Shown one piece after another: positions 1 through 50,254 of a DNA stretch of 64,000 nt. The DNA is from Beijerinckiaceae bacterium (GTDB lineage Bacteria > Pseudomonadota > Alphaproteobacteria > Rhizobiales > Beijerinckiaceae): contig DASZIL010000151.1 in the NCBI GenBank assembly GCA_035949255.1, forward strand, positions 9,218 to 73,217. The letters run 5' to 3'. Within the stretch, counting starts at the first letter, position 1. Every line of letters starts with the position of its first letter. A program made the position numbers and the translations under genes. Below the pieces are notes generated by a model. That model was given only the letters and a program-made list of their open reading frames with translations, had not been told where the DNA came from and ran no database searches.

Positions 1-896
1 GGCTCGGCCACCTGAAAGATGCGGCCCGGTGTGGATTTGCGGCCGCGAACGCGCACGCCGCTCGGACGCATGCCGAGGAATTTGCCGGCCTGATGCTCGG
101 AAAGCACGCCGGTGATGTGGTCGTCCACCACGATCACCTCGTCGACTTCTCCATGCCATTGGCGCGCGAAGATGCCGATCGTCGCCGAGCCGCAGCCGAC
201 GCGCATGCGCTCTTCCTTGACCCCGTTGACGATCGGCGCGGCGCCGGCCTGGAGAACGACGCTGGCGCCGCCGTCGATCGTCATTTCCACGGCTTCGCAA
301 TTGCATAGCGCGAGGAGCGCGTCGCAAGTGACATTGCCCTCCGCCTTGCTGCCGCCGGTGAGGTGGCGCACCCCGCCGAGCGCAAGCATCTGGGAGCCAT
401 ATTCGGCGGTGGTGACATGGCCGACCTGCTCACCGCGAACGCGCACGGGCGCCGATTCCGGACCGAGGTGACGGTCCGTATCGATCTTCGCCTTGACGCC
501 GCAATAGCTGAAGATGCCCTCCGTCACGACGGTGACCGTGTCGACGCCTTCATAGTCTCCGGAGACGATGAAAGGCGCGGGCTTGTAGTCGGGATAGGTG
601 GTTCCGGCCCCGATGCCGGTGATCAAGGCGTCCTCCTGCAGCAGCAGGCCGCCATCCCAATCGGCAGCGGCATCAAGAAAAGGCCGCACGCTCCCACCCT
701 CGGCAGCGACGCGCCGCGTCAGCACGATCGGATCGGTGCGCACGAGGCGCCCGTCCTCATTGGCATACCGCGAGCAGGCACCCGCCCTCCCCGGCCGGAT
801 GCGGCAGAGAACCGGGCAGGCGTGGCAGCGCACGATGCCTTCATCGCCTTCCTCGCGGGCGCCGAATTTCTCGGTCTGGTCGCGGAACGCGTTCAT
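1..896 (-). CDS. hnr: 6-hydroxynicotinate reductase (3' end beyond window)
   Basis: Not in the ORF track because it has no stop in the window. Manual translation from ATG at 896 gives MNAFRDQ...CHACPVLCRIRPGRAGACSRYAN...GIGAGTTYPDYKPAPFIVS...TEGIFSYCGVK...RMRVGCGSATIG, motifs I recognise from Hnr. It starts 3 nt after the molybdoenzyme stop (TGA-AGG-ATG). Confidence 0.85.
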   Translation of the reverse strand, partial: MNAFRDQTEKFGAREEGDEGIVRCHACPVLCRIRPGRAGACSRYANEDGRLVRTDPIVLTRRVAAEGGSVRPFLDAAADWDGGLLLQEDALITGIGAGTTYPDYKPAPFIVSGDYEGVDTVTVVTEGIFSYCGVKAKIDTDRHLGPESAPVRVRGEQVGHVTTAEYGSQMLALGGVRHLTGGSKAEGNVTCDALLALCNCEAVEMTIDGGASVVLQAGAAPIVNGVKEERMRVGCGSATIGIFARQWHGEVDEVIVVDDHITGVLSEHQAGKFLGMRPSGVRVRGRKSTPGRIFQVAE

Positions 897-899
897 CCT

Positions 900-3740
900 T
901 CAGATCTCCAACGCGACGCCGGCGGCTTCGAGCGCCGCGCGGACACGGTGCGGGAGCGCCGGAATCTCACGGATCGAGACGCCGGTCGCATGGCGGATCG
1001 CGCCGAGGATGGCGGGCGCCGCGGGGACGAGGGCCGGCTCTCCGACGCCCTTGGCGCCAAAGGGGCCAAGCGGCTCCGGAGACTCGACGAGGATGATGTC
1101 GATCGGGGGAACATCGCCGAAGCTCGGGATAAGATAATCGTGCAGGTTCTCGGTCCGCCCGGGGACGTATTCTTCCATGAGCGCTAGCCCGATGCCTTGC
1201 GCGATCCCGCCATGGATTTGGCCTTCGACCAAGGTCGGGTTGATGGCCCGCCCGACGTCATGGGCCGCGACGAAATGGTCGAGCCGCACCGTGCCCAAGC
1301 CCATGTCGACGTCGAGCGCCACGATCTGGGCCGCAAAGCCGTAGGTCGCGTAAGGCACGCCCTGCCCCTTCACGTCGAGAGGCTCGGTCGGCGGGTCGAA
1401 ATCCCCCACGCCTTCGAAGACGACGCCGTCGTGGCCGCTCGGCCAGGAGGCAAGATCGATGACCGAGCTTTCGCCCTTCACATCGACCGTGAGACGCGAG
1501 CCTTGAAGTGAAAGTCGCGCGTCCGGCCCGGCATTGGTGTGCCGCAAGATTTCCGCCCGCAAGGCAAGCGCCGCATTCTCGGCGGCCTTGCCGGAGACGA
1601 AGGTCTGGCGCGAGGCCGAGGATTTGCCGGCGTCGGCCGTCCGGTCGGTGTCTCCGCTGACGAGCGTGAAGACTGTGACCGGCAATCCGAGAGCGTCGGC
1701 GGCGATCTGCGTCAGCACCGTCGTCGAGCCTTGCCCGATGTCGACCGCGCCGTTGAAGAAGGTGAGCTTTCCTTCACGGGTCACGGTGAGGCGCATGCGC
1801 GAAGGGTTCGAAAGCGCGGTATTGCCGATCCCGTACCACATGCAGGCGATGCCGACGCCGCGGCGCATGACGGCGCGCTTCGCGTTGAGCGTCCGAGCCT
1901 CATCGAGCATCCGTTTCCAATTCGGGCGCAGCGCCTCGAGACAGCGATCGAGGCCGACGCTTGCTTGCAATACTTGCCCGGTCGCCGTCTCGTCCGCCAC
2001 CCGCAAGGCGTTGAGCAACCGGAATTCGAGCCGGTCGAGCCCGCATTTCTCGGCGAGCTCGTCATAGAGCGCTTCATGGGCGATCGCGGCCTGCGGCACG
2101 CCAAAACCGCGAAAGGCGCCGGCGATCGGCCCGTTACTGTAGATGGCGCGCGCACGATTGAGCACATTCGGCACCCGATAAGGCCCTGTCCCGTGCACCG
2201 GCACCCGCCCCGCGACGGTCGGCCCCCATGACGCATAGGCGCCCGTGTCGAAATCCGCCTCCATGGCATAAGCGGTGATCCGCCCTTCGGCATCGCAAGC
2301 AGCGCGTGCCGAAATGGCGGAGGGATGGCGCTTCGTCGTCGCGGCCATGGATTCGGGGCGTGTGTAGACCGAGCGGACAGGCACGCCCATCTGCCAGGCC
2401 GCGATGGCGAGCATGGGCTGCAAGGAGACATCGAGCTTGCCCCCGAAGCCTCCCCCGCATGCCGAGGGAACGATCCGAACATCGCCGGGCTCGACGCCGA
2501 GAACGCGCGCGACCTCGTCGCGGCTCATGTAAGGGGCTTGGGTCGAGGCAAAGACCTCGACGCGATCGCCGACGCGCCGCGCGAAGCCAGCCTCGGGCTC
2601 GATATAGGCGTGCTCGACGAAGCCCGTCGAGAACACACCTTCCGCCACATGGGCCGAACCATGAAAAGCGCTATCGACGTCTCCCTTCTCGACCCAGCCG
2701 CGCACGAGCACATTGTCCGGGCGTGAGACATGCACCGCATGGGCATTGGGCGAGAGCGCGGCTTCGAGCCCGATGAGCGCCTCGAGCGGCTCCCAGCGGA
2801 TCGGAAAGCGGGCGACATCGAAGCCGTCGATCGCGGCGCGCTCGCCGATGATGGCCGCCACGGCCTCCCCACGGTATCGCGTCTCGCCTTCAGCGAACAC
2901 GGGCTGATCCTTCATATCGGGAAAGATGCCGAAGGAATTCTCGCCCGGCACATCCGCGGCGGTGAGCACGCGGAAAATCCCCGGCTCGTTCGACACGAAG
3001 GCGCCAAGATCGCCGATGCTGAAGCGTGCGCGCGCATGAGGCGAGCGAATGGCCCGGAGCCAGAGCGCGTCTTGCGGAGCCTTGTCCGCACCATAGGTCT
3101 CGCTGCCGTCGAGCTTGGGAAGGCCGTCGAGGCGCGCCACCCTGGCCCCAACCGCGACGGCGCTTGTCGCCGGACGCGTCTCGTACGCCGTAGCGACCGC
3201 CGGCGAGGCGTCTCCATCTCCTGTCGGCAAGAGGACATCTTCCGCCAGCCCTTCATCGGGCTCGAGGAAGCGTTGAGCGTCGAGCACGGCCTCGCAAATC
3301 TTGAGATAGCCCGTGCAACGGCACAGCACGCCGCCGAGCGCGGCCTCGATCATGGGGAGGCTCAGCTTCTCGACACGGCGCAAGAGATCGAGCGAAGCCA
3401 TCAACATGCCGGGGGTGCAGATGCCGCATTGGGCGGCGCCGTGATGATGAAACGAGCGCTGCAGCGCCCGCCCGATCGGATCGTTCGCGATGCCCTCGAT
3501 GGTCTGCACCCGCCTGCCCTCGAGCTGCGCCGCCGCAACGAGGCAGGCGCAGGCCTGCTCCTCGTCGATGAGCACGGTGCAGGCGCCGCAATCGCCGGCG
3601 TCGCAGCCGACCTTGGTGCCGGTGAGGCCGAGCTCCTCGCGCAGCAGGCGCGACAAACGCATATCGGGACGCGCGGCGACCTCGACCTTCTTGTCGTTGA
3701 CGGTGAGCACGACCGCGCCCGTGAATTCTTCAGGCGTCAT
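900..3740 (-). CDS. Xanthine dehydrogenase family molybdoenzyme with N-terminal 2x[2Fe-2S] domain fused to the Mo-binding subunit; probable nicotinate dehydrogenase S+L
   Basis: GTKVGCDAGDCGACTV, QCGICTPG and LCRCTGY Fe-S motifs; GGGFGGK, AFRGFG.PQ and KGVGE Moco motifs. Substrate inferred from the adjacent hnr. Confidence 0.85.
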   Translation of the reverse strand: MTPEEFTGAVVLTVNDKKVEVAARPDMRLSRLLREELGLTGTKVGCDAGDCGACTVLIDEEQACACLVAAAQLEGRRVQTIEGIANDPIGRALQRSFHHHGAAQCGICTPGMLMASLDLLRRVEKLSLPMIEAALGGVLCRCTGYLKICEAVLDAQRFLEPDEGLAEDVLLPTGDGDASPAVATAYETRPATSAVAVGARVARLDGLPKLDGSETYGADKAPQDALWLRAIRSPHARARFSIGDLGAFVSNEPGIFRVLTAADVPGENSFGIFPDMKDQPVFAEGETRYRGEAVAAIIGERAAIDGFDVARFPIRWEPLEALIGLEAALSPNAHAVHVSRPDNVLVRGWVEKGDVDSAFHGSAHVAEGVFSTGFVEHAYIEPEAGFARRVGDRVEVFASTQAPYMSRDEVARVLGVEPGDVRIVPSACGGGFGGKLDVSLQPMLAIAAWQMGVPVRSVYTRPESMAATTKRHPSAISARAACDAEGRITAYAMEADFDTGAYASWGPTVAGRVPVHGTGPYRVPNVLNRARAIYSNGPIAGAFRGFGVPQAAIAHEALYDELAEKCGLDRLEFRLLNALRVADETATGQVLQASVGLDRCLEALRPNWKRMLDEARTLNAKRAVMRRGVGIACMWYGIGNTALSNPSRMRLTVTREGKLTFFNGAVDIGQGSTTVLTQIAADALGLPVTVFTLVSGDTDRTADAGKSSASRQTFVSGKAAENAALALRAEILRHTNAGPDARLSLQGSRLTVDVKGESSVIDLASWPSGHDGVVFEGVGDFDPPTEPLDVKGQGVPYATYGFAAQIVALDVDMGLGTVRLDHFVAAHDVGRAINPTLVEGQIHGGIAQGIGLALMEEYVPGRTENLHDYLIPSFGDVPPIDIILVESPEPLGPFGAKGVGEPALVPAAPAILGAIRHATGVSIREIPALPHRVRAALEAAGVALEI

Positions 3741-4642
3741 GCCGCGACCCTCCCGGCTCGCGGCTCAATGAAAGCGGCGAGCGCGCGCCGCACCAGGATA
3801 CGCGCGGCGTCCCGCCGATAATGCGCGCTGGCGCGCACATCATCGAGCGGCGCCAAGACCGAAAACAGCCCAGGCGTGACACGCTCGAGAAGCGAGAGGT
3901 CAAGCCTCTCTCCGCGCAGCTCCGCTTCGAGCGCGGCGAGGCGCGTGGGCACGGCCGATGCGGCCCCGACCGTGATGCGGATATCGGCAATGCTTCCGTC
4001 CGCGGCCTCATCGAGGAGCATGGCGACCGATACGATCGAGATCACGAGATGGGAGCGCGCGCCGAGCTTCAAGAAAAGCGAGCGCGAAGTCGCGTGATGG
4101 GCCGGAACGCGGATCGCGACGACGAGCTCGTCGCCGGCAAGATCGGTGTGTCGGTTTCCGCGAATGAAGGTCGCGAGCGGCAGGCGACGCTCGCCGCGCA
4201 CAGAGGCGATCTCGACCTCCGCATCGAGCGCCAGCAAGGGGGGCACACCATCCGCCGCCGGAGAGGCGTTGACGATATTGCCGCCGAGCGTCCCGCGATT
4301 TTGGATCTGCAAGCCTCCGATCTGAAGCGCGGCTCGTTTGAGCGCATCGAAGGCGGCGGGCAGCCGCGTCGCAACGATATCGGTCCAGCTCGTGGCGGCG
4401 CCGATCGAAAGCGCCCGCCCGTCCCGCCGCATGCCCTTGAGTTCCGGGATCTGCGTGATGTCGAGGAAATCGCGTGGGAAACTCTCGAGCCAAGCCTGTT
4501 TGCCGGCCCGCGTCGGGTAGATGTCGGTGCCGCCCGCGAGGACCGTGAGCGGATGAGCCGAGCGGCCCTTGCCGGAACGGGCAGCCTGCGCAAGCGTCGT
4601 GAGCGCCGACTTCAACGAGGCTGGACGCAGATAGATCGGCAT
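3737..4642 (-). CDS. FAD-binding (medium) subunit of xanthine dehydrogenase family enzyme
   Basis: LAGGTD, IQNRGTLGGNIVNASPAADG and DDVRASAHYR motifs; 4-nt overlap with the Mo subunit gene. Confidence 0.9.
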   Translation of the reverse strand: MPIYLRPASLKSALTTLAQAARSGKGRSAHPLTVLAGGTDIYPTRAGKQAWLESFPRDFLDITQIPELKGMRRDGRALSIGAATSWTDIVATRLPAAFDALKRAALQIGGLQIQNRGTLGGNIVNASPAADGVPPLLALDAEVEIASVRGERRLPLATFIRGNRHTDLAGDELVVAIRVPAHHATSRSLFLKLGARSHLVISIVSVAMLLDEAADGSIADIRITVGAASAVPTRLAALEAELRGERLDLSLLERVTPGLFSVLAPLDDVRASAHYRRDAARILVRRALAAFIEPRAGRVAA

Positions 4643-4751
4643 CGCCTCATGCTCCCGTCCTGGCCGTTTCTTCCGCCATCGAAACCAGCCCTATCCGAAG
4701 GCATCTCGGGAAAGTTGCTCTCGAGCCTTTCGCGTCTTGTGCCTCCCGGCC

Positions 4752-5828
<1,077 letters not shown>

Positions 5829-5850
5829 TCAATCTCCATCCGGGTCGAAA

Positions 5851-5868
5851 TCATTCGTATACGAATGA
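5851..5868. promoter_or_regulatory. Perfect 18-bp palindrome, candidate operator
   Basis: TCATTCGTATACGAATGA is its own reverse complement and lies 26-43 nt upstream of the FNR start codon. Confidence 0.6.
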
Positions 5869-6083
5869 ATAGCAAATCCTCGAACTGCCTGCAATGACCC
5901 GTAGATAAGGCTTGTGCGCGATGGAGGGAAGCTCGGACATGGGCAGCAAGGCGCGCATCCGAGGCATGAGAGCTACGGTACGCATAATCGTCGCCCAAAT
6001 CGGAGCGGGTCATGCCGTCGAGGAAATTCTGGCCGACGACTCTTAGCTTGAGCGAAGACGTCATGCTGGCGCTACGCCATGCC

Positions 6084-6111
6084 GCGTGGCGTGGCGTGGC
6101 GTGGCGTGGCG
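6084..6111. repeat. (GCGTG)5 pentanucleotide tandem repeat
   Basis: Five perfect GCGTG units plus GCG in the marR-FNR intergenic region. Confidence 0.9.
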
Positions 6112-6237
6112 AGCCGAGGCGGACGCGTTGTGTATTGTCATTGCGAACTGAAGGATAAGATGGGCGGTTCTTGAACGAATCCGCATGCCAACAGCTTTTT
6201 CAGCCTGGGAAGGCGCCACCCCGCCCGAGCATCAGGG

Positions 6238-6666
6238 CTACACGATCCTGCCCAACAGCGAGATGAGGCGGCGCTGCTCGCTCGGTGATAGCGGGGCGAG
6301 GGTCGCCGTGGTCGCTGCGCGCGCCTTGTCGATGAGGCGCGCGACAAGCGCTAGCCCCTCCCCGCTCAGGCGAAGGCGGACGCGCCGCTTATCGATAGGG
6401 TCCTGGGCGCGCTCGATGAGGCCGCGCTCGATGAGGCGCGTCACCACGCCCTTCGTCGTCGCCGGGTCCATTCCGGTGAGCCTGCCGAGATGGTTTTGCG
6501 AGAGCTCTTTGGATTCACCGAGCTTGACGAGGGCGGCGAACTGGGTCGGGGTCGGCCCGTCCTCGCCCATCTCCGCAATGAAGATCGCGACGTGGCGCTG
6601 ATGCGCGCGGCGCAGCAAATGGCCGATCTGCGCCTCGAGCCGATAGGTTTCGGAACGAGGCGGCAT
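6238..6666 (-). CDS. MarR family regulator, NicR/BpsR-like
   Basis: LEAQIGHLLRRAHQRHVAIF N-terminal helix, SQNHLGRLTGMDPATTKGVVTRL HTH and DPIDKRR wing. Confidence 0.85.
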   Translation of the reverse strand: MPPRSETYRLEAQIGHLLRRAHQRHVAIFIAEMGEDGPTPTQFAALVKLGESKELSQNHLGRLTGMDPATTKGVVTRLIERGLIERAQDPIDKRRVRLRLSGEGLALVARLIDKARAATTATLAPLSPSEQRRLISLLGRIV

Positions 6667-6669
6667 CGC

Positions 6670-7968
6670 CTACATCCGGCTCGGCAAATAGGTCGCGATG
6701 ATCGGGAGCGCGATCAGGATCACGAGGCGAAGCATGTCGGCGATGATGAACGGAATGACGCCCTTGAAGATAGTTGCGAATTTCACGTCCTTCACGACGC
6801 TCTTGATGACGAAGACGTTCATGCCGACCGGAGGGTGGATGAGGCCGAGCTCGACCGTCATCACGATGATCACCCCGAACCAGATGGGATCGAAGCCAAG
6901 CGACGTCACCACCGGGAAGATGATGGGCACGGTGAGGATGATCATCGCCATGGCGTCCATCAGGCAGCCGAGCACGAGATACATGAGCATGATCAGCGCG
7001 AGCACGCCGTAAGGGCCAAGCCCAAGACCCGTCATGAACTCGGTGACCTTTTGCGGCACCTGCGTGACGGTGAGAAAATAGCCGAAGAGGAGTGCGCCGA
7101 TCAGCACGGTGAACACGGCGGCGGCCGTGCGCGTCGCTTGCAACAGCGAGGCGCGGATTTCGGCACGCGAGAGCCGCCCGCGCGCGACGCCGAGGAGGAA
7201 GGCGCCTCCGGCCCCGACGCCGCCCGCCTCGGTGGGCGTGAAAATTCCCCCGTAAAGCCCACCGACGACGAAGACGAACAACAGTAGGGGCGCCCAGACA
7301 TCGCGCAACCCCGCGAGGCGTTCCCGCCACTCGCTCTTCGGCCCGGCCGGAAGAAATCCCGGACGCACAGCGCCGATCACGCCGATCGTCGCAATGTGCA
7401 TCGAGATGGCGAGAAGCCCTGGCAATATTCCGGCGACGAAGAGCTTGCCGATGTCTTGCTGGGTGATGATGCCGTAAACGGCTAGCACGGTCGAGGGCGG
7501 CAGCATGGCACCGAGCGTGCCGCCGGCGGCGATCACCCCCGTGGCGAAGGATTGCGGATAGCCGTAGCGGCGCATCTCGGGATAGGCGACGGAGGAGAAG
7601 GTCGCGGCAGTCGCCACGGAGGAGCCGGAAATCGCGGCAAACCCCGCGCAGGCCGCGATCGTCGCGACCCCGAGCCCACCCTTGCGATGGCCGACGAATG
7701 TGTTCGCCGCACGGAATAATTCGCTGCTGATGCCCGAAGTCGAGACGAACGCGCCCATCAGCAGGAACATCGGGATCACGCCGAAGGTGTAGTCAGTGAC
7801 GGTGCGCATCGAGGTTTGGCCGATGAGCTTCAAGGCGGGTCCCGAACCGACGAGATAGCCAAATCCGGTAACGCCGACGAGCCCCATGGCCATGCCGACC
7901 GGGACGCGAAGCAGCATGAGCGCGAAAAGAACGATGAAGCCAATGACGGCTACGCTGTCGGCGCTCAT
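6670..7968 (-). CDS. dctM: TRAP transporter large permease
   Basis: Highly hydrophobic; SGSSVATAA, GGTLGAMLPPS, FTPTEAG and LIHPPVGMNVFV motifs. Confidence 0.95.
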   Translation of the reverse strand: MSADSVAVIGFIVLFALMLLRVPVGMAMGLVGVTGFGYLVGSGPALKLIGQTSMRTVTDYTFGVIPMFLLMGAFVSTSGISSELFRAANTFVGHRKGGLGVATIAACAGFAAISGSSVATAATFSSVAYPEMRRYGYPQSFATGVIAAGGTLGAMLPPSTVLAVYGIITQQDIGKLFVAGILPGLLAISMHIATIGVIGAVRPGFLPAGPKSEWRERLAGLRDVWAPLLLFVFVVGGLYGGIFTPTEAGGVGAGGAFLLGVARGRLSRAEIRASLLQATRTAAAVFTVLIGALLFGYFLTVTQVPQKVTEFMTGLGLGPYGVLALIMLMYLVLGCLMDAMAMIILTVPIIFPVVTSLGFDPIWFGVIIVMTVELGLIHPPVGMNVFVIKSVVKDVKFATIFKGVIPFIIADMLRLVILIALPIIATYLPSRM

Positions 7969-8035: not shown

Positions 8036-8605
8036 TCATTCGACGGGCTTCAACGGCACGCGGCTGAAGCTGCCGGGCTGGAAGATCAGGCGCCATGTCC
8101 TGATCGCGATCAGGAGAACGGCCGATACATCCCCCACCCAGGCGACCGCGAAGAACGGCCAGGTCGGCAGATGCAGATCATAGGTGAGCACATTATCGGC
8201 TCGCGTCTGCGCTACCTTGTCGAACAACGTCGCCGTCTGCACCGTCACCACGAACAGAAGAACGAGGGTGGCGAAGATGTCGATGGCTCGTTGATATTTC
8301 GGGGAGGCCGCCGACCAGACGAGATCGACCGTGATATGCGTGCCGCGATAGCTCGTCGCCGCGATGCCCCAGAAGATCAGGATCCCGAGCAGCAACCGGC
8401 CGAAATCATAGCTGTCGGGGATCGAGGTCGAGAAGAATTTCCGCAACAGCACCGAGATGAAGGTATCGGCGGCGACAAGGCCGACGAAGATCGCGGCGAG
8501 AAGCTCGATGCCGTCGATGAAACGATCCATGAGGCCACGCGGGGGTGCGCTCGCGGCCGCCGCGTCGACGGACTTCTCGTCAGAGAGGGGCCGCGGTCCC
8601 GCCAT
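8036..8605 (-). CDS. dctQ: TRAP transporter small permease
   Basis: Four TM segments, HITVDL motif; lies between dctP and dctM. Confidence 0.9.
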   Translation of the reverse strand: MAGPRPLSDEKSVDAAAASAPPRGLMDRFIDGIELLAAIFVGLVAADTFISVLLRKFFSTSIPDSYDFGRLLLGILIFWGIAATSYRGTHITVDLVWSAASPKYQRAIDIFATLVLLFVVTVQTATLFDKVAQTRADNVLTYDLHLPTWPFFAVAWVGDVSAVLLIAIRTWRLIFQPGSFSRVPLKPVE

Positions 8606-8641: not shown

Positions 8642-9670
8642 CTAATAACCGGCCTTGTATTTTTCGAGCGTCGCCGTGAGATCGGCGAAAGCCTTGTCGG
8701 GATCAACTCCGGCCTTCTTCGCGCCTTCGGCCCATTTCGCCTTCAAGGGCTCGGTCGCTTTTCTCCAGGCGTCCACCTGCTCGCTTGTGAGCTGATAGAC
8801 GTCATGGCCAGCCTCGGCCCTCACCCTGTCTCGTCCGGCATGCTCGAAATCGGCCCAGGGGCTCGCGAAACGCTGCGCCCACTCGGTGCTGCAATGATCG
8901 TCGATCACCTTCTTTTGCGCGGGCGACATGTCGTCATAGGTCTTCTTGTTCATCACCCACACGAAGTCCGAGACATAGAGCGGCGCGTCCATGTGGAATT
9001 TCACCACCTTGTCGATGCCGAAGAGCACGAGCGAACCCCAGGGAAATGTGATCGCGTCGGCAACGCCGCGCTCGAGCGCATCGCGCGATTCGGGCGCGGA
9101 GGCTTGCACATTGGTGCCGCCGAGCGAGACGACCAAGGCGCCGATCGTGGCATTGGCCGGCCTGACCTTCAAGCCGCTGATGTCGGAAGGAAGGAGGATT
9201 TTCTTGTGAGCGTGGATGCCGCTGGGGTCATGCACGAAGGCGAAACAATAGTGCACATCCTTCATCTCTTGGGCCGCATAGGGACGATACCAGGCGTCGA
9301 GCGCGGCCGAGCCGGTATGAGCGTCCGAGATGAGGAAGGGCAATTCTCCCGCTGCGATAACGGGGAAACGGCCCGGCTGATAGCCGGGGTTGACGTAGGA
9401 GAAGTCGGCAATGCCGTCACGCGCCATGTCGTAATGGTCGAATGCCTTCCCCAATTGCTCGGAAGGAAAGACGAGGTAGTTGATCGAGCCGTTGGATGCC
9501 TTCTTCACATCCTCGGCCCAATCCTGGATCGCCTTCTGCAGCGGGTGTGAGGCCGGCACCCAATGGGAAAGCTTGAGCGTCACCGGCTTGTCCTGCGCCC
9601 AAGCGGGCACGGCCGAAGCGGGCACGGCCGCGACGAGCAGGGCCGCCATGGCGGCTGCAAATGTCTTCAT
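8642..9670 (-). CDS. dctP: TRAP transporter substrate-binding protein (aromatic-acid type)
   Basis: Signal peptide MKTFAAAMAALLVAAVPASA, LKLSHWVPASHP, YQPGRFP and GLKVRP. Start set to the ATG at 9670, which has a well-spaced GGAGG; the track start is further upstream. Confidence 0.9.
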   Translation of the reverse strand: MKTFAAAMAALLVAAVPASAVPAWAQDKPVTLKLSHWVPASHPLQKAIQDWAEDVKKASNGSINYLVFPSEQLGKAFDHYDMARDGIADFSYVNPGYQPGRFPVIAAGELPFLISDAHTGSAALDAWYRPYAAQEMKDVHYCFAFVHDPSGIHAHKKILLPSDISGLKVRPANATIGALVVSLGGTNVQASAPESRDALERGVADAITFPWGSLVLFGIDKVVKFHMDAPLYVSDFVWVMNKKTYDDMSPAQKKVIDDHCSTEWAQRFASPWADFEHAGRDRVRAEAGHDVYQLTSEQVDAWRKATEPLKAKWAEGAKKAGVDPDKAFADLTATLEKYKAGY

Positions 9671-9846
9671 TGGCCTCATCCTCCCTCGGTCGCGCCGTCC
9701 TTTGTCGCATCTTGGCGCGCCGGCTTTTGCCGGAGATTTCTCGTATCGGCAGCAAGCGCGCGGCGTCAAGCTCGGCGCCTTCAGGAGAGGCCCTGCCATC
9801 GTCGTTCCACTCACTCTCGCGGGCTTGTTCTCGTGCTTTCGCAACC

Positions 9847-11031
9847 TCATTTCACGTAAGGCATGCCGACGTAATTCTCGGCGAGGCTTTGCGCCGCCGC
9901 GCGCGAGCTCACGACATAGTCGAGCTGCGAGCGCTGGAGCTTCTGGCCGAAGCCGTCCTCATCGGGAAATTTGTGCAGCATCGAGGTCATGAACCAGGAA
10001 AAATGCTCGGCGCGCCACACCCGTTGCAGGCAGGTCGCCGAATAGCCGTCGAGGAGATCGGTCCGGTTCTCACGGTAAAAAGCGCTGAGCGCCTCTGACA
10101 GGACACGCACATCGGCGACGGCGAGGTTCATGCCCTTGGCCCCCGTCGGCGGCACGATATGGGCGGCATCGCCCGCGAGGAACAGCCGGCCGTGACGCAT
10201 CGGCTCGGTAACGAAGCTGCGCATGCCCGTGACGCCCTTCTCCAGCACCGTGCCTTCATGGACCGTGTCGCCCGCGGCGGTGCGCAGCCGCCGGTGCAGC
10301 TCTTCCCAAATGCGGGCATCCGGCCAAAGCTCGAGATTCTCATCGGGCCGGCATTGCAGATAAAGCCGCGCGACCTCATGCGAGCGCATGCTCGAGAGAG
10401 CAAAGCCCCGAGGGTGGTTGACGTAGATCACCTCTTCGGATGCCGGCTCCGCCTTCGCAAGGATGCCGAGCCAGGCGAAGGGATAGACGCGATCGTAAAC
10501 CGTAATCGAGCCTTGCGGAATGGACGGCCGGCAGATGCCGTGAAATCCATCGCAGCCCGCGATGAAGTCGCAGGCGATTTCGCCTTGCTCTCCCGCCCGT
10601 GTGAAGGTGATGCGCGCCCGCTCGTCCTCGAAATCGTGAACGGCGGCATTCTCGGCCTCGAACAGGATCGCGCCCTTGTCCTCGAGACGCTGCGCGATCA
10701 GATCCTTCACCACCTCCTGCTGGCCGTAGACGGTGATCACCTTGCCGCCCGTCAGTTCCTTGAGATCAAGGCGGTGGCGATGCTCGCCGATCTGGATCTG
10801 GATGCCCTCATGCACGAGGCCTTCTCGTCGAAGCCGGGTATCGAGGCCGGCTTCGCGCAAGATGTCGACGCTGCCCTGCTCGAGCACGCCCGCGCGCACG
10901 CGATTCTCGACGTAGGCGCGGCTTCGTGCCTCGACCACGATCGAGTCGATGCCGTGAAGGTGCAAGAGATGCGACAGCAGCAATCCCGCCGGCCCCGCTC
11001 CGACGATGCCGACTTGTGTGCGTTCGCGCAT
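9847..11031 (-). CDS. pobA: 4-hydroxybenzoate 3-monooxygenase
   Basis: RVRAGVLEQG, YGQQEV, DFIAGCDGFHG, GDAAHIVPPTGAKGMNLA and AENYVG motifs. Confidence 0.92.
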   Translation of the reverse strand: MRERTQVGIVGAGPAGLLLSHLLHLHGIDSIVVEARSRAYVENRVRAGVLEQGSVDILREAGLDTRLRREGLVHEGIQIQIGEHRHRLDLKELTGGKVITVYGQQEVVKDLIAQRLEDKGAILFEAENAAVHDFEDERARITFTRAGEQGEIACDFIAGCDGFHGICRPSIPQGSITVYDRVYPFAWLGILAKAEPASEEVIYVNHPRGFALSSMRSHEVARLYLQCRPDENLELWPDARIWEELHRRLRTAAGDTVHEGTVLEKGVTGMRSFVTEPMRHGRLFLAGDAAHIVPPTGAKGMNLAVADVRVLSEALSAFYRENRTDLLDGYSATCLQRVWRAEHFSWFMTSMLHKFPDEDGFGQKLQRSQLDYVVSSRAAAQSLAENYVGMPYVK

Positions 11032-44381: not shown

Positions 44382-45161
44382 TCACACCCGCCGCTCGACC
44401 ATCATCTTCTTGATCTCGGCGATGGCCTTCGCCGGGTTGAGGCCCTTGGGGCAGGTCTGCGCACAATTCATGATGGTGTGGCAGCGGTAGAGGCGGAAAG
44501 GGTCTTCGAGATGATCGAGCCTTTCGCCCGTCGCCTCGTCGCGTGAATCGATCAGCCAGCGATAGGCCTGAAGCAGCGCGGCCGGGCCGAGATAGCGCTC
44601 GCCGTTCCACCAATAGCTCGGGCATGAGGTCGAGCAGCAGGCGCAGAGGATGCATTCGTAAAGCCCATCGAGCTTGGCGCGATCGGCTTCGGACTGGCGC
44701 CACTCCTTCTCGGGCTCACGCGTTTGCGTCTGCAGCCAAGGCTCGATCGAGGCGTGTTGCGCGTAAAAAGTCGTCATGTCCGGCACGAGGTCCTTGACCA
44801 CGGCCATATGCGGCAAGGGATAGATCTTGATCGGGTGCTTCACCTCGTCCATGCCGCGCGTGCAGGCGAGCGTGTTGCCGCCATCGATATTCATCGCGCA
44901 AGAGCCACAAATGCCTTCGCGGCAAGAGCGGCGAAAGGTGAGCGTCGGGTCGATCTTCGATTTGATCCAGATGAGCCCGTCGAGGATCATCGGGCCGCAA
45001 TCGCCGCGATCGACGAAATAAGTTTCGACGCGCGGATTGGCGCCCGTGTCGGGATCGTAGCGATAAATGCGAAACTCGGTGACCGATTTTGCACCTTGCG
45101 GCCTAGGCCAGATCTTGCCGGCCGTGATCTTAGAGTTCTTGGGAAGTGCGAATTCAACCAT
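44382..45161 (-). CDS. sdhB: Succinate dehydrogenase iron-sulfur subunit
   Basis: [22 protein letters not shown] and [12 protein letters not shown]. Confidence 0.97.
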
Positions 45162-45251
45162 TGATGATTTCAATCCCGAATAAGCCCCGTATCGCGGTTC
45201 GAACCGAAGCTCGCCACCCGATACCCTGGATCATTTTCTGTCGGATATTCC

Positions 45252-47096
45252 TCAATACACCCTGGCCTTCGGCTCGATATAGGCGATGTCGTTCGAGAGC
45301 GTGAAGCTGTGCACCGGGCGATAGTCGATTTTCACCTCGCGCTTCTCCGGGTCGATCCAGGAAAGCGTGTGCTTCATCCATTGCTTGTCGTCGCGATCGG
45401 GGAAATCTTCACGCGCATGCGCGCCGCGGCTTTCCGTCCGGTTGAGCGCCGAGTCCATGGTGACGACGGCCTGGACGACGAGGTTGTCGAGCTCGAGCGT
45501 CTCGACGAGGTCGGAGTTCCAGATCAGCGATCGATCGGTGACGTTGATATCGTCGATACCTTTCCACACATCGTGGATGAGCTTGTGGCCTTCCTCCAGC
45601 ACCTCCCCGGTGCGGAACACCGCGCAATTCGATTGCATCACCCGTTGCATCTTGTCGCGCAACTGCGCGGTCGGCGTGCCTCCCTTGGCATGGCGGAAGC
45701 GGTCGAGCCGCGTGAGCGCGAGCTCACCCGCGTCGGCGGGAAGCTCCGGCTGTGATTCGCCAGCATGGAGCAGCTCGGCGCAGCGCAGACCCGCGGCGCG
45801 CCCGAAGACGACGAGATCGATGAGCGAGTTCGAGCCGAGGCGGTTTGCGCCATGCACCGAGACGCAAGCGGCCTCCCCGATCGCCATCAGGCCCCGCACG
45901 ACCGCGTCGTCGTCGGCACCCTTCTTGGTGAGCACCTCGGCGTGGTACGAGGTCGGCACGCCGCCCATGTTGTAGTGGACGGTCGGCAGCACCGGGATCG
46001 GCTCCTTGGTGAGATCGACGCCGGCGAAAATCTTCGCGCTCTCGGAAATGCCCGGAAGGCGCTCATGCAGCACCTTCGGATCGAGGTGGTCGAGGTGAAG
46101 GAAAATATGATCCTTCTTGGCGCCGACGCCTCGGCCTTCCCGGATCTCGATCGTCATTGAACGTGAGACGACGTCGCGCGACGCGAGGTCCTTGGCCGAG
46201 GGCGCGTAACGCTCCATGAAGCGCTCGCCTTCGGAATTCGTGAGATAACCGCCCTCCCCTCGCGCCCCTTCGGTGATCAAACAACCAGCGCCGTAAATGC
46301 CGGTCGGATGAAATTGCACGAATTCCATGTCCTGGAGCGGCAAGCCGGCGCGCAGCGCCATGGCGCTGCCGTCGCCCGTGCAGGTATGGGCGGAAGTCGC
46401 GGAGAAATAGGCGCGGCCATAGCCGCCGGTCGCGAGCACGGTCATCTTCGCGCGGAAGCGGTGGAGAGTGCCGTCGTCGAGCTTCAGCGCCACGACGCCT
46501 CGGCAGCGGCCTTCCTGATCCATGATCAGGTCGATGGCGAAATATTCGATGAAGAACTGGCTTCGCTCCTTCACCGCCTGGCCGTAGAGCGTGTGCAAGA
46601 TCGCGTGGCCGGTGCGGTCGGCGGCGGCGCAAGTGCGCTGCGCCTGGCCGCCATGGCCGTAATCCTTGGTCATGCCGCCGAACGGGCGCTGAAAAATCCG
46701 GCCATCTTCCGTGCGCGAGAAGGGCACGCCCCAATGCTCGAGCTCGTAGACGGCGGCCGGCGCGTTGCGCACCAGATATTCGATCGCGTCCTGGTCGCCC
46801 AGCCAGTCCGACCCTTTCACCGTGTCGTACATATGCCAGCGCCAATCGTCGGGATGCATATTGCCGAGCGCGGCCGAGATGCCGCCTTGCGCCGCGACCG
46901 TGTGCGAACGCGTCGGGAAGACCTTGGTGATGCAGGCGGTCTTGAGTCCGGCTTCGGCGCATCCGACCGTCGCGCGCAAGCCTGCCCCTCCGGCGCCGAC
47001 GACCACCACATCGAACGCATGATCCGTGATCGCATAGGCCTTGCCGTTCTGCGCGGGGGCCGTTCCGTTCGCCTTGCCGTTCATCGCCATGGTCAT
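45252..47096 (-). CDS. sdhA: Succinate dehydrogenase flavoprotein subunit
   Basis: [19 protein letters not shown]-His motif, [16 protein letters not shown] and ESRGAH. Confidence 0.97.
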
Positions 47097-47101
47097 CTTC
47101 C

Positions 47102-47500
47102 TCAAACGAGCCGCGCGAGGCCGATCTTCAGAATCGCATAAACGGCCGAGAGCGCGAAGGCGAAGGCAAAAAAGCTGTTGGCGAGAAGCGCCAACAGCTT
47201 CAATCCCTCGCCATGCACATAATCCTCGATGATCACCTGCATGCCGATGCGCATGTGGACGGCGGCGCTGATCACGCCGGCGAGCAGGATGAGCGAGGCG
47301 AAGGGATGCGAGATGACCCTGATCGCTTCGGCATAGGGCTTGCCGATCAGCATCAACACGATGGTGACAAGGCCGATTGCGAGCACAACGTTGGCAAGGC
47401 CCGTGAGGCGCTGATGCCAGAAATGAGCGGTGCCGCTTTTCGCCGAACCGAGCCCCCTGACACGGGCGAGCGGCGTGCGCATGGTGGAGGTCGTCGTCAT
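47102..47500 (-). CDS. sdhD: Succinate dehydrogenase membrane anchor subunit
   Basis: [16 protein letters not shown] and [13 protein letters not shown]. Confidence 0.95.
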
Positions 47501-47529
47501 GGCGTCACTTTGCTCCCGTCGAGGCCATT

Positions 47530-47925
47530 TCAGTGCCAGGCAAGGGCTACGGCCCAGAGGATGAGGGTCAGCACGGCCGAGCCCGCGAGGTTGGCCCAGG
47601 CGAGCGTATCGCGCGTCCCTGCCTCCATCCCCCTTCCGCTGTCCCAGATGAAGTGCCTGATCCCGCCGAGCATGTGGTGGATAAGCGCGAAGCTGTAGCC
47701 AAAGAGCACGACCCGACCGGGAATGGACCCGAAAACCGCGCTCGCCCTATCGTAAGCGGCCTCACCAGAAGCGGCGGAGAGCAGCAGGAACACGAGCAAA
47801 ACCGTTCCGAAATAGAGCGCGCCGCCAGTGATACGGTGCCCGATCGACATCACCATGGTGATCGGCCAGCGATACACCTGAAGATGGGGGGAAAGCGGGC
47901 GTGAGCGCGTCTGTGTTTCTGTCAT
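47530..47925 (-). CDS. sdhC: Succinate dehydrogenase cytochrome b556 subunit
   Basis: RPLSPHLQVY, SIGHRITG and HHMLGGIRH. Confidence 0.95.
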   Translation of the reverse strand: MTETQTRSRPLSPHLQVYRWPITMVMSIGHRITGGALYFGTVLLVFLLLSAASGEAAYDRASAVFGSIPGRVVLFGYSFALIHHMLGGIRHFIWDSGRGMEAGTRDTLAWANLAGSAVLTLILWAVALAWH

Positions 47926-48104
47926 CGGCCGGAATCCAAAATCCTGGGCACATGGGAGAGGTAATCAAACTTGGCGCGCTGTGCAATGCAGCATGTGCGC
48001 GGCGCGCGAACGTCGGCCATGCGGGGTGAGGCGTCCCCTCCCGCCTTGCCAGGGCTTTCGCACGCGGCCATCATCTTGAACGGTCAAGGAAACAGGAGAT
48101 GATC

Positions 48105-49301
48105 ATGGCGGTCGAGGTGGCCGGCGGCCCGATGAGGGGCAAGCTCGTCCTGCGCAATATTTCCACGCTGTTTTCGGGCGATCTTTCCCATCCCGTTCTC
48201 GATGCCGACACGATCATCGCTGTCGATGGCCGAATCAGCGCGGTCGGCCGGGAAAAGGATCTCGACGCGCACAATCCCGATCTCGTCATCGATGCGAAGG
48301 GATCGGCGCTCGCGCCGGGCTTGATCGACAGCCATTGCCACCCTGCCTTCGGCGATTGGACGCCGCGCCAAAATCAGCTCGGCTGGATCGAAAGCTGCGT
48401 GCATGGCGGGGTCACCACTTTCGTCTCCGCCGGCGAGGTGCATCTTCCCGGAAGGCCGAAGGACCGGCTCGGCGTCAAATCGCTCGCCATCGCGGCCGAG
48501 CGCGCCTTCTCAAATTTCCGCCCGATGGGCGCCAAGGTGCTGGCCGGAGCGCCGGTGCCCGAAAGCATCATGACCGAGGAGGATTATGCCGAGCTCGCCG
48601 AAGCGGGAGTGAAGCGCATCGGCGAGATCGGGCTTGGCACGGTGAACACGGGGCCGGAGGCGAAAAAACATGTCGAATGGGCGCGCAAGCACGGCATCGA
48701 GACCATCATCCACACCGGCGGCCCTTCGATCCCGGGCTCGAACCTGATCAGCCGCGAGATCGTGCTCGAGGCCGACCCCGATGTGATCAGCCACATCAAC
48801 GGCGGGCATACCGCGCTGCCGAAGGGCTGCATTTGCGCCTTGTGCGAACAAGGGCGAGGCGCGATCGAGATCGTCCACAACGGCAATGAGCGAGCGGCCC
48901 TCATCGCGCTCGAAGCGGCCAAGGGCCTCGGCATCATGCACAAGGTGATCCTCGGCACTGACGCGCCGGCGGGCTCTGGCGTGCAGCCGCTTGGCATCTT
49001 GCGCACGCTCGTGTTCCTCTCGAGCTTCGGCGGGCTCAAGGCCGGCGAGGCGATCGCGCTCGCGTCCGGCAATACCGCGAAGATCCGCAACCTCGACGGC
49101 GGCTTGATCGCACCGGGCAGACCTGCGGATTTCGTCTTCATCGATCGCCCGCAGCATTCGGCGGGGAAGACGGTGAGCGAGGCGATCGAGCTCGGCGATA
49201 TCCCCGGCATCGGCATGGTGGTGATCGACGGCAACGTGCGGCTCGCCCGCTCGCGCAACACCCCGCCCGCCGATAAGGTGCCGCGGGTCGTCGAGGGTTG
49301 A
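48105..49301 (+). CDS. ena: Enamidase (amidohydrolase of nicotinate catabolism)
   Basis: Reads directly on the + strand (AGGAG-ATGATC-ATGGCGGTC...GAGGGT-TGA at 49301), although the ORF track labels it '-'. Motifs: PGLIDSHCH, DWTPRQ, SAGEVH, GEIGLG, HTGGPSIPGS, HINGG, HNGN and GTDAPAGSG. Confidence 0.82.
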   Translation: MAVEVAGGPMRGKLVLRNISTLFSGDLSHPVLDADTIIAVDGRISAVGREKDLDAHNPDLVIDAKGSALAPGLIDSHCHPAFGDWTPRQNQLGWIESCVHGGVTTFVSAGEVHLPGRPKDRLGVKSLAIAAERAFSNFRPMGAKVLAGAPVPESIMTEEDYAELAEAGVKRIGEIGLGTVNTGPEAKKHVEWARKHGIETIIHTGGPSIPGSNLISREIVLEADPDVISHINGGHTALPKGCICALCEQGRGAIEIVHNGNERAALIALEAAKGLGIMHKVILGTDAPAGSGVQPLGILRTLVFLSSFGGLKAGEAIALASGNTAKIRNLDGGLIAPGRPADFVFIDRPQHSAGKTVSEAIELGDIPGIGMVVIDGNVRLARSRNTPPADKVPRVVEG

Positions 49302-49307
49302 GGCGGG

Positions 49308-49378
49308 CGATGACCCTCCTCGCTTCGTCGAGGGCGGATCCTCCTCCCCCCGCTCTCCTTCGCAGCGCTTCGGAGAGC
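49308..49378 (+). other. Tandem hairpins with CCUCCUC loops (cuckoo-like RNA structure)
   Basis: CGATGA[CCCTCCTCGCT]TCGTCG, GCGG[ATCCTCCTCCCC]CCGC, then a GCTCTCC/GGAGAGC stem. Confidence 0.35.
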
Positions 49379-49495
49379 TCGGCCGGGGATGATACCGCAC
49401 CTTCCCGCCCGACACCGAGCTTTCCCTGATCGACGAAGCTTCGGCGGCACGCTAAGGACAGCGCGCTTGGAAACATTTGAGGAAGGCACGGATCC

Positions 49496-50254
49496 ATGGC
49501 GTCACAGGAAAAGATCGCGCTCGTGACGGGCGCCAGCAGCGGCGTCGGCCGGGCAACGGCGCATGCGCTGATGAAGGCGGGCTACACGGTCGTGCTGGCC
49601 GGACGTCGCAAGGATGCGCTCGAGGCCACGGCCGCCCAGGGCAAGGCGTTTGGCGGAAAATCCCTCGTGGTGGCCGCCGACGTCACCGATCACGCCTCCG
49701 TCAAGGCGCTCTTCGCCAGGACGAAGGAGGCTTTCGGGCGCCTCGATGTCCTATTCAACAATGCCGGCATCGGCGCGCCGCCCGTCCCGATGGAGGAGCT
49801 CACTTACGAGCAGTGGAAGAAGGTCGTCGACACCAATCTTTCGGGCCCCTTCTTGTGCACGCAAGAAGCGATCAAGATCATGAAGGCGCAATCGCCGCGC
49901 GGCGGCCGCATCATCAACAACGGCTCGATCTCGGCGCATACGCCGCGCCCCAACTCCGCCCCTTACACCTCGACCAAGCACGCCATCACGGGCCTCACGA
50001 AATCGACCGCGCTTGACGGGCGAGCTCACGATATCGCCTGCGGGCAGGTCGACATCGGCAACGCGGCTTCCGAGATGACCGAGCGCATGAAATCAGGCGT
50101 TCCGCAGGCCGATGGTTCGACGAAGGTCGAGCCCGTGATGGCGGCCGAGAATGTCGCAAGCGCGGTGGTTTACATGGCGAGCCTTCCGCCCGACGCGAAT
50201 GTGCTCTTCCTCACGGTGATGGCGACGAAAATGCCCTTCGTTGGGCGGGGATAA
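49496..50254 (+). CDS. Short-chain dehydrogenase/reductase
   Basis: [15 protein letters not shown] and YTSTK catalytic motif. Confidence 0.92.

Follow-up and report, generated by a model that had tools for sequence, protein, structure and literature searches.

The only TrxR-type ferredoxin-NADP+ reductase gene of a Beijerinckiaceae genome heads a putative nicotinate operon

The reductive route of nicotinate (vitamin B3) degradation was worked out in a strict anaerobe, in which reduced ferredoxin is plentiful. The upper pathway of Eubacterium barkeri, with nicotinate dehydrogenase (NdhFSLM), 6-hydroxynicotinate reductase (Hnr) and enamidase, was reportedly described by Alhapel and co-workers in 2006; the E. 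barkeri dehydrogenase is NADP-dependent and its Hnr (EC 1.3.7.1) is ferredoxin-dependent. A proteobacterial cluster of the hydroxylate-then-reduce kind has likewise been known since 2006. An Hnr orthologue from a member of the Bradyrhizobiaceae is 42% identical to E. barkeri Hnr, and the cluster to which it belongs is conserved in Azorhizobium caulinodans, for which the route through 1,4,5,6-tetrahydro-6-oxonicotinate (THON) was shown biochemically, and in other Proteobacteria (PMC3511419). No paper was found on how aerobic Alphaproteobacteria supply electrons to Hnr. This study concerns a stretch of 64,000 nucleotides (nt) from a Beijerinckiaceae bacterium (G000:C151:9218-73217, hereafter the window; the assembly is 4.1 Mb and 94% complete), which starts with a cluster of this kind preceded by a gene for ferredoxin-NADP+ reductase (FNR) of the thioredoxin reductase (TrxR) type. 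The pathway itself is already known; what is unusual here is that the only general FNR of the genome heads the nicotinate operon, behind the cluster's own control site.

All five genes that a preliminary description had placed at the start of the window (hnr, a fused [2Fe-2S] and molybdenum subunit, a FAD subunit, a TrxR-type FNR and a MarR-family regulator) were found to be present, intact and co-directional on the minus strand, and the third enzyme of the pathway, an enamidase orthologue, was located in the same window (Table 1). The arrangement is best explained, with moderate confidence on our part, as the aerobic (Azorhizobium-type) version of the E. barkeri upper pathway organized as one operon in the order operator, fnr, ndhF, ndhS-L-M and hnr. 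FNR is probably coupled functionally to the pathway and co-regulated with it in this genome, and is likely to supply electrons for ring reduction. The basis of this reading consists of gene identities by homology, gene order, conservation of the operator, and the recurrent linkage of FNR or ferredoxin to the pathway elsewhere.

Analysis of the region upstream of fnr revealed a perfect 18-bp palindrome, TCATTCGTATACGAATGA, which is the best site of the 4.1-Mb genome at 34.2 bits in a weight-matrix scan; the whole genome holds just three sites of at least 16 bits. The palindrome is regarded as the putative operator of the MarR-type nicotinate repressor, which would be expected to bind it. Its family, with a consensus of about ATCGTTCGTATACGAACGAT, was also found across the 80 related hnr loci (L numbers) that formed the comparison set for synteny. 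In L039, L059, L062 and L067 a member precedes the FAD-subunit gene, mostly by no more than about 60 nt (by 120 nt in L047), and in L056, L060, L063, L066, L073, L076 and L080 it stands 19-129 nt before the FAD-subunit match, the gene itself having been missed or mis-started by the crude gene caller. Further members are located upstream of hyuA in L008, L015, L016, L027 and L028, directly upstream of FNR in L003, and between FNR and a divergent unknown gene in L005. The 12-mer core, with up to two mismatches, occurred 35 times in 1.35 Mb of loci compared with 11 times in shuffles, and most copies lay within about 60 nt upstream of FAD, hyuA, FNR (L003) or binding-protein genes. Hydantoinase A/B genes stand directly behind the operator of hnr clusters in the five hyuA loci named above and in L091 (genome G061). 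No comparable operator was found near FNR in 20 Hnr-bearing genomes with a distant FNR (best 5.8 bits), none was found near FNR in three same-family genomes without Hnr (best 10.5 bits), and a search before the enamidase, AA_synth, UPF0280 and ABC genes of this genome found none.

The regulator encoded upstream of the palindrome has 2NNN as its best solved relative (E 7e-33) and BpsR 6PCP (also 6PCO) as the second (E 4e-22), and MarR orthologues flank hnr clusters in many loci. The preliminary description had called it NicR/BpsR-like and counted it in the co-directional cluster. With BpsR only the second-best solved relative, the likeness is a tentative one. By spacing, marR belongs to the upstream pobA-dctPQM unit: its start (6666) follows directly after the end of dctM (6670), while 412 nt separate it from FNR.

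Comparison of the 80 loci revealed FNR within 10 kb of hnr in seven (L003, L004, L005, L007, L011, L019 and L054), whereas the expectation for a single-copy gene is about 0.22, and the adjacent copies occur in at least four different gene orders. In a tree of FNR these copies do not form one clade and sit among copies from genomes in which Hnr is absent or distant. FNR stands about 12 nt before the FAD gene in L007. In Bosea sp. Leaf344 (L004) the order is MarR, operator, FNR, a 105-amino-acid (aa) [2Fe-2S] ferredoxin, FAD, fused iron-sulfur and molybdenum gene (FeSMo) and Hnr, and a second, stand-alone FNR copy without the operator is present elsewhere in the genome. Both Bosea FNR genes (L004:5098-5877; L118:8373-9091) are partly masked as N and read as an 'unknown 259-aa protein'. 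Pelagibius marinus (L019) likewise has FNR and ferredoxin inside the hnr operon and a second FNR elsewhere. The FNR adjacent to hnr in L054, a 51% paralogue, lies about 8 kb from hnr and 5 kb from the FAD-subunit gene, possibly by chance. In genome G041 the genes for enamidase and for a 258-aa PF00175 reductase (Fpr) diverge from either side of a 27.7-bit operator; this is a non-orthologous parallel, in which an unrelated type of reductase is placed behind the same operator family.

The molybdenum enzyme is encoded by the FAD-subunit gene and by a fused gene whose product contains the domains Fer2, Fer2_2, Ald_Xan_dh_C, MoCoBD_1 and MoCoBD_2. Against the nicotinate dehydrogenase of E. barkeri (3HRD), the fused subunit scored 269.6 bits for chain L, 199.3 bits for chain M and 107.5 bits for chain S. 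The sum of 576 bits compares with 358 bits for the best single chain among solved structures, and 3HRD is in this sense the best summed solved match of the molybdenum enzyme; 3HRD_C is the second-best solved relative of the FAD subunit (96.6 bits). The order FAD-FeSMo-Hnr is kept in about 60 of the 80 loci, and the FeSMo gene adjoins Hnr in 70. The match of the enamidase orthologue to E. barkeri enamidase 2VUN is full-length (E 4.5e-103), and the orthologue is 66% identical to the amidohydrolases of hnr clusters. Because of the similarity to 3HRD, the conserved triad, the enamidase orthologue and the literature, the cluster is assigned to the already known proteobacterial (Azorhizobium-type) version of the reductive nicotinate route. 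This predicted identity is an ordinary one, is supported, and agrees with the preliminary description.

Taken together, these assignments suggest the following scheme. Nicotinate would be imported, probably via the adjacent TRAP system, and hydroxylated at C6 by the molybdenum enzyme, with two electrons leaving through the FAD subunit to NAD(P)+. With NADPH as donor, the TrxR-type FNR would reduce a ferredoxin whose gene is located at another place in the genome, and this ferredoxin would feed Hnr, an iron-sulfur flavoenzyme, for the conversion of 6-hydroxynicotinate to THON, which the enamidase would hydrolyse with opening of the ring. The first three steps would sum to a redox-neutral conversion, that is, a closed electron loop encoded by the operon, and this would explain why the reductase and the hydroxylase are kept in one transcript. 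The MarR-type repressor would sit on the palindrome and be released when a pathway substrate is present. All catalytic and electron-transfer steps, the inducer and the substrate of the transporter are predicted here from homology and genomic context.

A wider generalization is put forward more tentatively. It is possible that aerobes run the oxygen-sensitive, ferredoxin-dependent reduction of 6-hydroxynicotinate by means of a redox-neutral loop (molybdenum hydroxylase to NADPH, FNR, ferredoxin and Hnr), and that lineages have repeatedly and independently placed unrelated NADPH-ferredoxin reductases, sometimes with a ferredoxin, under the nicotinate repressor: a TrxR-type FNR here and in Bosea, Microvirga and Pelagibius, and a plant-type Fpr in Bradyrhizobium-like genomes. 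In the present genome even the sole FNR would have been captured. This operon and the FNR-ferredoxin-ndh-hnr operon of Bosea name concrete candidate electron donors. The operon moreover illustrates the placement of a housekeeping redox gene under a catabolic repressor, and one may ask how a basal supply of FNR is then maintained.

The identity of the reductase was examined by comparison with solved structures. Among these, the ferredoxin-NADP reductase of Rhodopseudomonas palustris (5YGQ) aligns with the 357-aa protein at E 1e-161; other TrxR-type FNRs (2ZBW, 3AB1 and 3LZW) follow at E 1e-62 to 1e-76, and true thioredoxin reductases score E 1e-24 or weaker. The protein contains six cysteines but no CxxC motif. 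No second copy is present in the genome, in which the next match is 30% identical. FNR is the cell's general housekeeping FNR and neither a spare paralogue nor a private enzyme of the pathway. The preliminary description had proposed a dedicated link to Hnr: a functional link is favoured by the operator, the recurrence and the Bosea operon, but the idea of an FNR of the pathway's own is not supported for this genome, in which it is a sole-copy, housekeeping gene with orthologues in 145 of 201 genomes of the order.

In a survey, 200 evenly drawn genomes of the order were searched with both FNR and Hnr, 144 of them having an FNR orthologue, and the results weigh against a dedicated enzyme. Hnr was present in 48 genomes, 32 of which have an FNR orthologue, as do 112 of the 152 genomes without Hnr, and the presence of FNR does not track that of Hnr. 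Almost all genomes that have the orthologue carry one copy of it, and the carriers include genomes of only 1.3-1.4 Mb. FNR and hnr are more than 400 kb apart in all 11 of the 32 genomes in which they share one contig; they lie on different contigs in the other 21, where adjacency was unseen and is not formally excluded. The co-occurrence that the preliminary description had suggested surveying is found as close linkage in seven of the 80 loci, but not in the phyletic pattern, and FNR was never seen near hnr in the 48 sampled Hnr genomes. In 16 of these 48 genomes FNR was not matched at E 1e-60, and Hnr is therefore not dependent on a TrxR-type FNR. Also to be set against the coupling are that most hnr clusters are without an adjacent FNR, that the organism's only FNR is oddly placed behind a catabolic repressor, and that no ferredoxin gene is present within the window. 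The preliminary description had noted the last of these correctly for the surroundings of the cluster; elsewhere the genome has two ferredoxin candidates, one of the adrenodoxin type on C82 and one of the 4Fe-4S type on C58. The FNR-hnr coupling is a minority, lineage-specific arrangement.

Three other explanations were weighed against this background. The pattern of the survey would suit an incidental adjacency, in which an ndh-hnr module was inserted by chance downstream of a housekeeping FNR, the palindrome serves the module, and FNR is transcribed along with it but has no specific part in the pathway. Besides the sole copy, the widespread orthologue, the missing phyletic association with Hnr and the distances on shared contigs, it can be noted that of four same-family genomes, all of them without Hnr, three have FNR. 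Synteny around FNR in those three genomes has nothing in common with the window. This explanation is nevertheless considered quite improbable: the operator precedes FNR and is not located between FNR and ndhF, G041 has an unrelated Fpr behind the same operator, the FNRs adjacent to hnr are more numerous than expected, occur in several gene orders and do not make up one clade, and the Bosea operon holds both FNR and ferredoxin in a genome with a second FNR copy. An action of the molybdenum hydroxylase and the Hnr-like protein on another substrate, such as another pyridine or an aromatic carboxylate, is very unlikely because of the similarities to enamidase and nicotinate dehydrogenase. The matches of the molybdenum subunit to NCBIfam models are all far below the equivalog cut-offs, and pobA and TRAP genes lie upstream, with pobA above its cut-off and overlapping the start of dctP, which would fit such a substrate. 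In contrast, the summed similarity to E. barkeri nicotinate dehydrogenase and the full-length enamidase orthologue point to nicotinate, as do orthologous clusters in organisms for which the THON route or growth on nicotinate was demonstrated (PMC3511419). Furthermore, pobA was not found in the part of L003 that was read, a locus that begins just before dctP, whereas the TRAP-marR-fnr arrangement is common to both.

The remaining explanation concerns the client of the reductase. FNR, with ferredoxin, might belong to the regulon in order to reduce a Rieske-type oxygenase, instead of or besides Hnr, and this is regarded as unlikely. The genome encodes a lone GbcA-like Rieske oxygenase alpha subunit of 425 aa (G000:C175:17653-18930) without a reductase gene beside it, whose substrate may be a nicotinate-related compound that undergoes, for example, N-demethylation or hydroxylation. 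About 110 nt before the oxygenase gene is the operator-like site that ranks second in the genome (25.3 bits), but this match is borderline, as about 0.1 sites are expected by chance at this score. The hnr cluster of G061 contains a Rieske homologue (38% identity, E 1e-83) together with a PF00175 reductase, in a unit that runs divergently to hyuAB. The gap between these two units holds a 28.1-bit operator, and two small open reading frames separate this operator from the Rieske gene. The hnr operon of P. marinus contains FNR, the [2Fe-2S] ferredoxin and a VanA-like Rieske oxygenase in this order, and the oxygenase is maybe the real client there, a point that speaks against Hnr; VanA-like Rieske genes are also present in the hnr loci L042, L034, L062 and L059. 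On the other side, it is the ndh-hnr operon that begins with FNR in this genome as well as in L003, L007 and Bosea, and searches with both Rieske queries gave no homologue in the Bosea locus L004 or in the 20 kb read around the Fpr beside enamidase in G041. The Rieske and Hnr client roles are not mutually exclusive, and the supply of electrons to Hnr by the probably co-regulated FNR is retained as the preferred reading.

The hnr gene extends beyond the window; the full gene (G000:C151:8662-10113, read as L002) has 483 codons, of which the 298 N-terminal ones are inside the window. No Pfam or NCBIfam family matched the protein. Its homologues number more than 8000, many of them named 6-hydroxynicotinate reductase by their source (NCBI or JGI), and representatives of 35-46% identity and about 510 aa exist. 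Analysis of 54 Hnr homologues revealed eight invariant cysteines (positions 24, 27, 31, 41, 132, 191, 235 and 370), four of which form an N-terminal CxxCxxxC-x9-C motif. A confident AlphaFold model of Hnr (pLDDT 85.6, pTM 0.83) had no Foldseek match among solved structures at E 0.001 or better, and its best VIA-align Z was 4.0, over a 63-residue barrel. The lack of a structural match for a predicted model does not show a new fold. As a protein with no Pfam or NCBIfam model, and with no solved structural relative found for its AlphaFold model, Hnr is a worthwhile target for structure determination.

Table 1. Features of the nicotinate operon and its surroundings (positions are those of the window).
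Feature	Position	Strand	Remarks
hnr, 6-hydroxynicotinate reductase homologue	starts 896, continues 555 nt beyond window start	minus	
Fused 2x[2Fe-2S] + molybdopterin subunit, 946 aa	900-3740	minus	putative NdhS-L-M fusion
FAD subunit (NdhF-like)	3737-4642	minus	FAD_binding_5 + CO_deh_flav_C
TrxR-type ferredoxin-NADP+ reductase (FNR)	4752-5825	minus	first operon gene
Perfect 18-bp palindrome TCATTCGTATACGAATGA	5851-5868		putative operator, 25 nt upstream of FNR start codon
marR, MarR-family regulator, putatively NicR/BpsR-like	6238-6666	minus	
dctM (TRAP)	6670-7968	minus	
dctQ (TRAP)	8036-8605	minus	
dctP (TRAP)	8642-9850	minus	
pobA	9847-11031	minus	above NCBIfam equivalog cut-off for 4-hydroxybenzoate 3-monooxygenase
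Enamidase orthologue	48099-49301	plus	42 kb from operon

Within the operon the genes are closely spaced: the FAD-subunit gene overlaps the fused gene by 4 nt, and only 3 nt lie between the stop of the fused gene and the start of hnr. The gap between FNR and ndhF is 109 nt, in which neither an operator (weight-matrix scan) nor a terminator-like site on the coding strand was found, and a consensus promoter and terminator scan inside the operon gave nothing useful. A -35/-10 pair picked by eye before fnr matched just 3 of 6 positions per hexamer and is not claimed. A LOG-family gene, convergent, closes the unit past hnr. In the closest relative, L003 (7129-9980), the fused gene has only 741 codons and is followed by a 600-nt gap before hnr; a frameshift or an assembly error is possible.

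A tandem run, (CGCCA)5, is located near 6085-6110 in the gap between marR and fnr (5869-6237). In comparison with L003, whose gap is about 550 nt longer, about 170 nt are well conserved, and the gap looks like the remnant of a small gene that was lost or decayed. An 81-aa open reading frame at 5819-6064 was rejected as a gene, with low third-position GC and no homologue. Upstream of marR, pobA overlaps the start of dctP by 4 nt. 6-Hydroxynicotinate is the aza-analogue of 4-hydroxybenzoate, and the TRAP system is a candidate uptake route for nicotinate or 6-hydroxynicotinate.

The enamidase gene, in the region 44382-50254, is a solitary one: sdhCDAB is divergent from it, and behind it comes a gene for a short-chain dehydrogenase (49496-50254), which could act on 2-formylglutarate. 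Frequent neighbours of the hnr clusters of relatives are UPF0280, AA_synth (PF06684), a Liv-type ABC transporter, hydantoinase A/B, amidohydrolase, a family III CoA-transferase and the MarR regulator. Orthologues of the helper genes are dispersed in this genome, with UPF0280 on C41, AA_synth on C4 and the ABC transporter on C90.

Comparison with described systems showed that the upper pathway of E. barkeri uses all three enzyme families and orders their reactions as here. Unlike that system, the S, L and M subunits are fused here into one protein, the host, which carries pobA, sdh and a Rieske oxygenase, is apparently an aerobe, the enamidase gene is 42 kb away, and a TrxR-type FNR heads the operon. 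The present Hnr has eight invariant cysteines, and the clostridial enzyme is reported to have one [2Fe-2S] and two [4Fe-4S] clusters. The cluster of A. caulinodans, Bradyrhizobium and strain SG-6C comprises hydroxylase, Hnr, enamidase, MarR, UPF0280, AA_synth and a transporter, all of which have orthologues here (Shettigar et al. 2012, PMC3511419). In contrast to those organisms, the helper genes, ABC transporter and enamidase are scattered here over C4, C41, C90 and elsewhere on C151, with no operator at any of them, a TRAP system replaces the adjacent ABC system, and FNR is first in the operon.

The regulator and the reductase can be compared in the same way. BpsR and NicR are 6-hydroxynicotinate-responsive MarR repressors of Bordetella and Pseudomonas putida. 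The MarR protein of this study is like them in its fold, in its position beside nicotinate genes and in a palindromic operator in the promoter regions of nicotinate genes; it differs in that 2NNN is a closer relative than BpsR, in the single strong operator of the genome and in the location of marR in an upstream transporter unit. The reductase resembles R. palustris 5YGQ, and also the Bacillus subtilis YumC and Chlorobaculum types, in its full-length match, high identity, lack of a CxxC motif and conserved C-terminal tail. It differs in its placement: it stands behind a catabolic operator and is co-oriented with ndh-hnr, whereas the orthologue of most relatives is located elsewhere without such a site.

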